Assembly (NCBI RefSeq): GCF_055900595.2
Contig: NZ_CM148325.1
DNA length: 64,000 nucleotides
Strand: one strand, 5' to 3'
Part shown: positions 49,918-51,952 of the stretch, piece after piece
Layout of the letters: each line of letters begins with the position of its first letter
Position numbering within the stretch: position 1 is the first letter of the stretch
Program-made: the position numbers and the translations under genes
The notes under the pieces: generated by a model
What the model was told of the DNA's origin: nothing
Database searches by the model: none
The model's input: the letters and a program-made list of their open reading frames with translations, nothing else

Positions 49918-49926
49918 ACTCAAAAT

Positions 49927-49957
49927 CAGACGCCAGGACAAATATTCTGGCGTCTCA
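49927..49957. terminator. Hairpin between convergent rclA and the aldo-keto reductase gene
   Basis: agacgccag-N10-ctggcgtct 9-bp stem; T-rich run on the minus-strand side. Confidence 0.5.
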
Positions 49958-49977
49958 GAGAAAATAAGTGATTAATA

Positions 49978-50847
49978 TCAATCATGTATTTTTACAGCAA
50001 GACAACCACGAACAAACTCAGGATTAAAATGTTTTACTGACTCCCCAACATAACCCAAATCAAGCGAACTAATTTGTGCCATTTCTTTCTCTGTCAGTGA
50101 GAAATCCCAGATAGCAAAATTTTCTTCGATACGCTGTTGATGTGTCGATTTCGGAATAACGACCACTCCCCGTTGAATATTCCAACGCAGAATGACTTGA
50201 GAAATCGATTTTTGATGGGCATCTGCAATACTCTGAAGCAGATTATTTTCAAAGGGTTTATGTCGTCCACCACCTAACGGAGCCCATGCTTCAGGCTGCA
50301 CGTTATAATACTTCATGGTTGCCAGCGCCTCTGGTTGGGCAAAATAGGGATGCAACTCGACCTGGTTGACCATCGGTTTAACTCTTACCGTTTCACAAAA
50401 GTTCGCCAGAACATGAGGGTAGAAATTGGAAACCCCAATCGCTTTTAATTTGCCCTCTTCATAGGCATCTTCGAGTGCACGCCACGCACTGAAATAATCG
50501 CGCATGGCCTGGTGCAATAAAAAGAGATCGAAGTATTCCAGTCCCGATTTTTTTAATGATTCTTCAATACCTGCTGCTGCAATATCCTGATTCAACATAT
50601 CCTGCACCCACAATTTAGACGTTATAAATAACTCTTCTCGGGTACATAAACCTTCAGATATGGCTTCACGAACGGCTTCACCGACGGCATCTTCATTACC
50701 GTATACCGCTGCAGTGTCGATGAGTCGATAACCCGTGCGGATAGCATTCAACACTGACTGTTTGCACACGTCTTTATCGGTAACCTGAAAAACACCAAAT
50801 CCCATCATCGGCATTTTCAGATTGTTACTTAATACGGAAAATTCCAC
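49978..50847 (-). CDS. aldo-keto reductase (DkgA/YtbE-like)
   Basis: AKR family; N-terminus aligns with the AKR at 56891; GTG at 50847 follows GGAGGG by 7 nt; alternative ATG at 50862 lacks an SD. Confidence 0.75.
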   Translation of the reverse strand: MEFSVLSNNLKMPMMGFGVFQVTDKDVCKQSVLNAIRTGYRLIDTAAVYGNEDAVGEAVREAISEGLCTREELFITSKLWVQDMLNQDIAAAGIEESLKKSGLEYFDLFLLHQAMRDYFSAWRALEDAYEEGKLKAIGVSNFYPHVLANFCETVRVKPMVNQVELHPYFAQPEALATMKYYNVQPEAWAPLGGGRHKPFENNLLQSIADAHQKSISQVILRWNIQRGVVVIPKSTHQQRIEENFAIWDFSLTEKEMAQISSLDLGYVGESVKHFNPEFVRGCLAVKIHD

Positions 50848-51094
50848 TGTCAGTCCCTCCATTAGGTATGAACAATGAGTCTACGTTAAAACGTAACCTC
50901 AAATTAGTATGTGGATTTTGATATCACTTATGCAAAAAATTCATTAATAATGTAGGACTGAAACCTCTCTATTTTTGGGGCAATGAAGCAGACGCTATCA
51001 GTGCTTTTGCCTTGGGACTTGCTGTTTTTGATACACTTAGGGCCCAGGACATAACGAAAATGTGCGATATGACAAAGAATTAACGGAGAATGTG

Positions 51095-51952
51095 ATGATC
51101 AGGCAGAAGATTCTACAGCAGCTCCTGGAGTGGATTGAGTGCAATCTTGAGCACCCTATTTCAATCGAAGATATCGCACAGAAATCTGGCTACAGCAGAC
51201 GCAACATCCAGCTTCTGTTCCGAAATTTCATGCATGTACCTTTGGGAGAATACATTCGCAAACGAAGGCTTTGTCGCGCCGCCATTCTTGTCCGGCTCAC
51301 CGCGAAATCTATGCTTGATATTGCACTCTCTTTGCATTTTGATTCACAGCAGTCATTCAGCCGCGAATTTAAAAAGTTATTCGGCTGCTCTCCCCGTGAA
51401 TACCGCCACCGTGATTATTGGGATCTCGCAAATATCTTCCCTTCTTTTTTAATACGTCAACAGCAAAAGACGGAGTGTAGATTAGTCAACTTTCCTGAGA
51501 CGCCTATTTTTGGCAATTCATTTAAATATGATATTGAAGTGTCGAATAAATCACCGGATGAAGAAGTCAAACTGCGACGTCATCATTTAGCCAGATGTAT
51601 GAAGAATTTTAAGACGGATATCTATTTCGTCTCCACGTTCGAACCGTCAACAAAATCGGTCGATTTGCTCACAGTTGAAACTTTTGCCGGTACGGTATGC
51701 AAACAAACCGATTCAGAGATGTCGAAAGAGTGGACAATTAACCGAGGACTGTATGCCTCTTTCCGCTATGAAGGTGAGTGGGAGCACTACCCTGAATGGG
51801 CGCGAAACCTCTATCTGATGGAATTACCTGCCAGGGGGTTAGCCAGAGTGAACGGCAGTGATATTGAGCGATTTTATTACAATGAAGATTTCGTAGAAAA
51901 GGATAGCAATGATGTTGTTTGCGAAATATTTATCCCTGTTCGTCCGGTTTAG
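51095..51952 (+). CDS. ykgA: Rob-like regulator (AraC-type HTH plus GyrI-like domain), 285 aa
   Basis: N-terminus MIRQKILQQLLEWIECNLEHPISIEDIAQKSGYSRRNIQLLF parallels Rob; ATG at 51095 with GGAG 6 nt upstream. Confidence 0.75.
   Translation: MIRQKILQQLLEWIECNLEHPISIEDIAQKSGYSRRNIQLLFRNFMHVPLGEYIRKRRLCRAAILVRLTAKSMLDIALSLHFDSQQSFSREFKKLFGCSPREYRHRDYWDLANIFPSFLIRQQQKTECRLVNFPETPIFGNSFKYDIEVSNKSPDEEVKLRRHHLARCMKNFKTDIYFVSTFEPSTKSVDLLTVETFAGTVCKQTDSEMSKEWTINRGLYASFRYEGEWEHYPEWARNLYLMELPARGLARVNGSDIERFYYNEDFVEKDSNDVVCEIFIPVRPV

Follow-up and report, generated by a model that had tools for sequence, protein, structure and literature searches.

The window, by which we mean the whole stretch of 64,000 nucleotides that was analysed, is part of an E. 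coli chromosome; over 5 kb it is 100% identical to NZ_CP098223.1 (strain Z0117EC0005, dog, South Korea), whose RefSeq gene calls agree with the open reading frames of the window. The genes and features of its reactive-chlorine locus and the adjoining region are as follows.

47512..48366, minus strand: rclR, AraC-type activator sensing reactive chlorine and HOSCN; intact
48367..48591, unstranded: divergent rclR-rclA regulatory region; conserved, 222 of 225 nt identical to K-12
48592..49917, plus strand: rclA, flavoprotein HOSCN/Cu(II) reductase; intact
49928..49955, plus strand: post-rclA hairpin with an 11-bp stem, directly after the rclA stop codon
49944..49967, unstranded: single hybrid repeat copy (ATTCTGGCGTCTCAGAGAAAATAA), from alignments against the left and right rclBC flanks in L004, L006 and L015
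49978..50847, minus strand: aldo/keto reductase of 289 aa, a DkgA-like paralogue; intact, converging on rclA
51095..51952, plus strand: ykgA-type AraC/Rob-like regulator of 285 aa; intact, a usual neighbour lying outside the deletion event
52073..56326, minus strand: fdeC/eaeH, inverse autotransporter adhesin; intact

The initial annotation had placed the end of rclA at 49917, followed by a hairpin, the convergent reductase and the Rob-like regulator, and the ORF listing and the sequence show these coordinates to be accurate. The reductase ORF as listed reaches 50862 and that of the regulator begins at 51062, while the rclA frame is open for nine codons further upstream, to an ATG at 48565 (MNAFRQEII...), the annotated start and that of K-12 both being the ATG at 48592. 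The reductase scores 233 bits against the NCBIfam DkgA model, which is under the cutoff of 425, and the regulator at 51095-51952 aligns over its full length to the RobA model with 196 bits, again under the cutoff (380). Farther along, between fdeC and ykgR, lies a block comprising LysR regulators, two more aldo/keto reductases, a flavin oxidoreductase and an alpha/beta hydrolase pseudogene interrupted by a stop codon (window ~60967-61887; NZ_CP098223.1 1056185-1057105 in the RefSeq annotation).

The regulator and the reductase of the RclR/RclABC system are both found here in a nearly unchanged form. RclR is identical to its K-12 counterpart at 282 of 284 residues, carries Cys21 and Cys89, and scores 555 bits against the NCBIfam RclR equivalog NF040475 (cutoff 400); RclA matches K-12 at 436 of 441 residues, retains the C43-x4-C48 active site, and reaches 867 bits against the RclA equivalog NF040477 (cutoff 740). 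What is not found downstream of rclA are rclB (78 aa) and rclC (197 aa), and the best tblastn matches anywhere in the 64-kb window have E=0.2 for RclB and E=0.05 for RclC. The observation that neither gene lies between rclA and the reductase thus holds, as tblastn gave no significant match in the window, and so does the K-12 order with which it was compared, namely rclA, rclB, rclC.

It had also been proposed that the reductase and ykgA occupy the position of rclBC, and this part of the initial annotation has to be given up, for both genes normally adjoin rclC on its downstream side in most E. coli. The usual order, seen in O157:H7 as well as in L004, L006 and L015, is rclR, rclA, rclB, rclC, the convergent reductase, the regulator and fdeC, and it recurs in most of the 4,620 genomes with a coverage of 80% or more of a 5-kb query. 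In K-12, by comparison, only remnants are left of what follows rclC (L003 7601-10811): the reductase is reduced to 129 nt, the ykgA regulator lacks its C-terminus because of an IS3 insertion, and fdeC/eaeH is truncated, so that three genes that are all intact in the window (49978-56326) are degraded in the reference. K-12 is therefore a degraded reference on the rclC-downstream side, and the reductase and the regulator are conserved neighbours that were not inserted; that they appeared unexpected is probably explained by K-12 keeping their remnants only. In the pig isolate Res13-Sevr-PER07-33, the source of L004, the reductase beside rclC (3671-4539) is annotated as frameshifted; together with the K-12 remnant, this suggests that decay of the reductase gene is a recurrent event in E. 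coli.

When the locus is aligned with K-12 and other E. coli, the reactive-chlorine region does differ, as had been claimed, in that 1,049 bp are deleted and rclBC are gone. The lost segment comprises rclB, rclC and the 159-nt spacer between rclC and the reductase, which carries a strong hairpin. On either side of it stands one copy of an imperfect direct repeat of about 25 nt, the two copies lying 1,049 bp apart (L004 positions 2595 and 3644; L006 positions 952 and 2001). Both copies are kept in the rclBC-positive L004, L006 and L015, whereas the window has one hybrid copy. The left copy, ATTC-TGGCGTCTCAGAGAAAATAA, overlaps with the 3' arm of the hairpin following rclA, and the right copy, ATTCTTGTC(G/A)TCTCAGGTAAAATAA, is located directly past the reductase stop codon; the crossover falls within an exact 7-nt stretch, AAAATAA (49961-49967). 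In L004 the left flank reads ...TCTCAGAGAAAATAA and continues with TCTT, in strain 1190 the right flank reads ...TCTCAGGTAAAATAA and continues with GTGATTAAT, and the window joins the two, reading ...TCTCAGAGAAAATAA followed by GTGATTAAT. Past AAAATAA the window has GTGATTAATATC, which is exactly the right flank of strain 1190, such that positions 49944-49976 consist of an L004-type left flank through AAAATAA and then of a strain-1190-type right flank. No untemplated bases are therefore needed at the junction, the 48-nt sequence of which is ATTCTGGCGTCTCAGAGAAAATAAGTGATTAATATCAATCATGTATTT. The junction lies 10 nt from the reductase stop codon and leaves a spacer of 60 nt between rclA and the reductase.

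We also considered that bases at the junction had been added or mutated, given that AG stands there instead of the CA of L004, L006 and O157; this was ruled out by the AAAATAAGTGATTAAT variant in the right flank of strain 1190. As to a mobile-element scar, no IS is annotated or present at the junction in the window. A clean crossover in 7 nt of microhomology is the classic signature of a short-direct-repeat deletion, and the scar points to slippage or illegitimate recombination as its probable origin. Deletion between short direct repeats is reported to occur independently of RecA, by slipped-strand mispairing at hairpin-associated repeats (e.g. Albertini 1982, Lovett 2004). By our estimate, about 0.3 repeats matching at 12 of 14 positions would be expected by chance between two short AT-rich spacers, so the repeat is not statistically unusual. 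It explains where the break occurred, not why the deletion was retained.

The hairpin that the left repeat copy overlaps (49928-49955) folds as RNA with -18.3 kcal/mol (z = -5.3; none of 200 shuffles was as stable), and the same sequence stands upstream of rclB in L002, L004, L006 and L015, being the normal rclA-rclB intergenic hairpin. A canonical intrinsic terminator after rclA was considered and rejected, as the pattern scan made no call and the plus strand has no U-tract. In its usual context the hairpin lets transcription continue into rclBC. Read on the minus strand, it has GAUUUUGAGUUU behind it as a weak U-rich tail, and it is possible that it serves as a terminator for the reductase gene.

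How common the deletion is was determined among 5,426 complete E. coli genomes, which also form the appropriate control, as the finding is one of presence or absence and not a statistical pattern. The junction, detected with a 200-nt probe and contiguous coverage, is present in six of them, and rclBC DNA in 5,112, with at least 80% covered in 5,021 and all identity bands represented. One of the six carriers was isolated from a dog (South Korea), the other five from humans (Mali, Kenya, India, Bangladesh and Japan). They are 100% identical to the window over the neighbouring 24 kb, where the next-best genomes reach 97.9%, and therefore represent one clone. None of the papers found in the library searched describes an E. 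coli lineage naturally devoid of rclBC.

It is conceivable that the missing genes are still encoded elsewhere in these genomes. A probe made of the junction and reverse-complemented rclBC, however, found one place per carrier chromosome as against two in the controls, and combining the rclBC probe with a 48-mer found only in carriers raised the number of records from 5,239 to 5,245 and that of genomes from 5,112 to 5,118. The carrier-only 48-mer thus added six genomes, and therefore no carrier has rclBC on any replicon. Relocation of rclBC within the carrier genomes is ruled out by these two results at the level of megablast, the sensitivity of which, in the rclBC and rcrB tests alike, extends to sequences of about 85% identity or more and does not reach distant DUF417/DUF1471 paralogues.

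Another candidate, compensation by the UPEC paralogue rcrB, was rejected as well, since with a megablast-level probe the gene is absent from the six carrier chromosomes, whereas in control strains the probe finds a second place. In CFT073, rcrA-rcrR-rcrB (L012 22497-23827) encodes DUF1471 and DUF417 proteins, the two families to which RclB and RclC also belong, with RcrA being 26.5% identical to RclB and RcrB 24.9% identical to RclC. On sequence grounds, the rcr and rcl pairs look like paralogous two-protein modules placed under different regulators. The window itself contains a DUF1471-like stretch on the minus strand at 17108-17278 (35% identity to RcrA over 57 aa, E=9e-5), which probably represents a yahO-type periplasmic stress protein and thus a distant relative of RclB.

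The initial annotation had left it open whether this lineage lacks rclBC or K-12 gained them. That a lineage without rclBC exists is borne out, but a gain by K-12 has to be rejected, given that 5,112 of the 5,426 genomes contain rclBC DNA as against six with the junction. We are highly confident, judging from the alignments and counts, that the window carries a derived, clone-specific allele of rclR/rclABC that arose by a 1,049-bp deletion between imperfect repeats. We consider the state derived because of this imbalance, because of the published conservation of RclABC, and because of the repeat structure, with two copies where rclBC are present and one where they are not. The opposite polarity would require that the lineage never had rclBC and that K-12 and the other E. 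coli acquired them by insertion between rclA and the reductase. The imperfect direct repeat that bounds rclBC could superficially resemble a target duplication. However, rclBC occupy the same site in 5,021-5,112 of the 5,426 genomes, while the empty site is confined to six genomes of a single clone, and the flanks of that clone are 97.7-98.4% identical to those of ordinary rclBC-positive E. coli, so that it is no outgroup. Moreover, rclBC are not accompanied by mobile-element genes or ends, and the full RclABC set is conserved across the Enterobacteriaceae including Salmonella (PMC9335216, PMC7527725). Ancestral absence is thus very improbable.

If the absence is accepted as secondary, the deletion allele could still have originated outside the clone and have entered it together with a larger segment exchanged by homologous recombination. 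In favour of this, the 5-kb locus differs by about 2% from its best rclBC-positive matches, and the left and the right flank of the junction are best matched in two different strains, L004 and strain 1190, respectively. Yet the neighbouring 24 kb shows the same distance of about 2% from the nearest non-clone genomes, so the locus does not stand out from its surroundings, and among the 5,426 genomes the junction is confined to this one lineage; we therefore regard import as unlikely. The thought that a sequencing or assembly error collapsed the two repeat copies has nothing beyond the presence of the repeats in its favour. An imperfect repeat of about 25 nt is much too short to cause such a collapse in a modern assembly, and the identical junction is found in six complete assemblies that were made independently in at least three projects from differing hosts and countries, for which reason an artefact can be discounted almost entirely. 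A deletion that occurred within the clone therefore remains our preferred reading.

Two human isolates of the same clone from The Gambia, 100117 and 100248, match the window at every position over 20000-43270 and then have a deletion of about 32.7 kb in which the 3' end of betA is joined to the 3' end of paoB (L007, NZ_CM128596.1, 4920-5030). This deletion, whose junction has a microhomology of 2-3 nt only, takes ykgH, ykgEFG, rclR, rclA, the reductase, ykgA, fdeC, ykgMO, the ecp operon, yagU and paoA. The clone is therefore losing the rcl region stepwise. On the 245-kb multidrug-resistance plasmid pGD31-F1928 (NZ_CP031295.1, L013 7736-9061), rclA is found without rclR, rclB and rclC between IS1 and IS26, where it adjoins tet(M); across the collection there are about 150-160 plasmid places with rclA and/or rclBC DNA, and about 150 when rclBC DNA is counted.

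The history that we propose would start from an ancestral order in which rclR diverged from rclA, rclB and rclC, the reductase converged on rclC, and ykgA and fdeC followed in the forward and the reverse direction, respectively. One deletion of 1,049 bp, by recombination or replication slippage between the repeats of about 25 nt, would then have removed rclB, rclC and the spacer, leaving rclA alone as the unit activated by RclR. The sensing and reductase module should function, because RclR, RclA, their cysteines and the promoter region are conserved, and the clone would thus remain able to detect reactive chlorine and HOSCN and to respond by inducing RclA. It is further conceivable, though speculative, that the hairpin, which has no U-tract, does not stop the transcription of induced rclA, which would then run antisense into the reductase gene.

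As to the loss of the two accessory genes, the published K-12 knockouts predict that the clone has a reduced tolerance of HOSCN and HOCl. Mutants of MG1655 lacking rclB or rclC are sensitive to HOSCN (PMC12096828, PMC9335216) and, according to PMC7527725, which cites Parker 2013, to HOCl as well. In the UPEC strain CFT073, the rclC deletion had no HOCl phenotype (PMC10312555), and because of this the cost of losing rclBC may depend on the genetic background. That this host-associated clone tolerates the loss or even benefits from it, either because RclA alone suffices or because antisense read-through silences the reductase, seems to us improbable. A sister branch in which the whole locus is deleted is a hint in this direction, namely that the niche of the clone may not require the rcl system. 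If the loss were tolerated or favoured, the clone would be a natural tool for working out the roles of RclB and RclC, and if antisense silencing took place, a new regulatory link would run from oxidant-induced rclA to the reductase. A clone cleanly devoid of rclBC with intact rclR and rclA offers a ready-made comparison strain for the study of RclB and RclC, and the occurrence of carriers in people and a dog from six countries indicates that the accessory genes are dispensable for host persistence, at least in this background.

Taken together, the event and the locus can both be placed among known systems. Like other deletions between short direct repeats, the event combines two ancestral repeat copies, one remaining hybrid copy, a short exact crossover, an overlap with a hairpin arm and the absence of an IS, and nothing in the rclBC case departs from that pattern. 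With UPEC rcrA-rcrR-rcrB (PMC9600549, PMC10312555), rclBC share the DUF1471 and DUF417 pair; rcr differs in that it is controlled by a TetR repressor and not by RclR, and in that it is missing from the carrier chromosomes. The RclA-only systems, namely Har of Streptococcus, MerA of Staphylococcus and RclA of Lactobacillus reuteri (PMC9335216, PMC12096828), likewise have a HOSCN reductase without RclB and RclC, but these taxa never had rclBC and lack RclR, whereas the window keeps RclR and its lack of rclBC is secondary. Among laboratory strains, MC4100 lacks 97 kb including the regulon (PMC9600549). The K-12 rclB and rclC knockouts, which have lost the same functions, are the sole experimental guides to the phenotype; the clone differs from them in that both genes were lost naturally, in another background, and in that it persists in humans and a dog across two continents. 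Finally, the locus shares with K-12 rclR/rclABC (Parker 2013; PMC7527725, PMC9335216, PMC12096828) its site between ykgE and ykgA and an RclR and RclA that are 99% identical, and differs from it in that the periplasmic DUF1471 protein RclB and the inner-membrane DUF417 protein RclC are missing and in that a monocistronic rclA converges directly on the reductase gene. The locus is a reduced variant of the known RclR/RclA system produced by a well-known mutational mechanism, and hence a real but ordinary gene loss.
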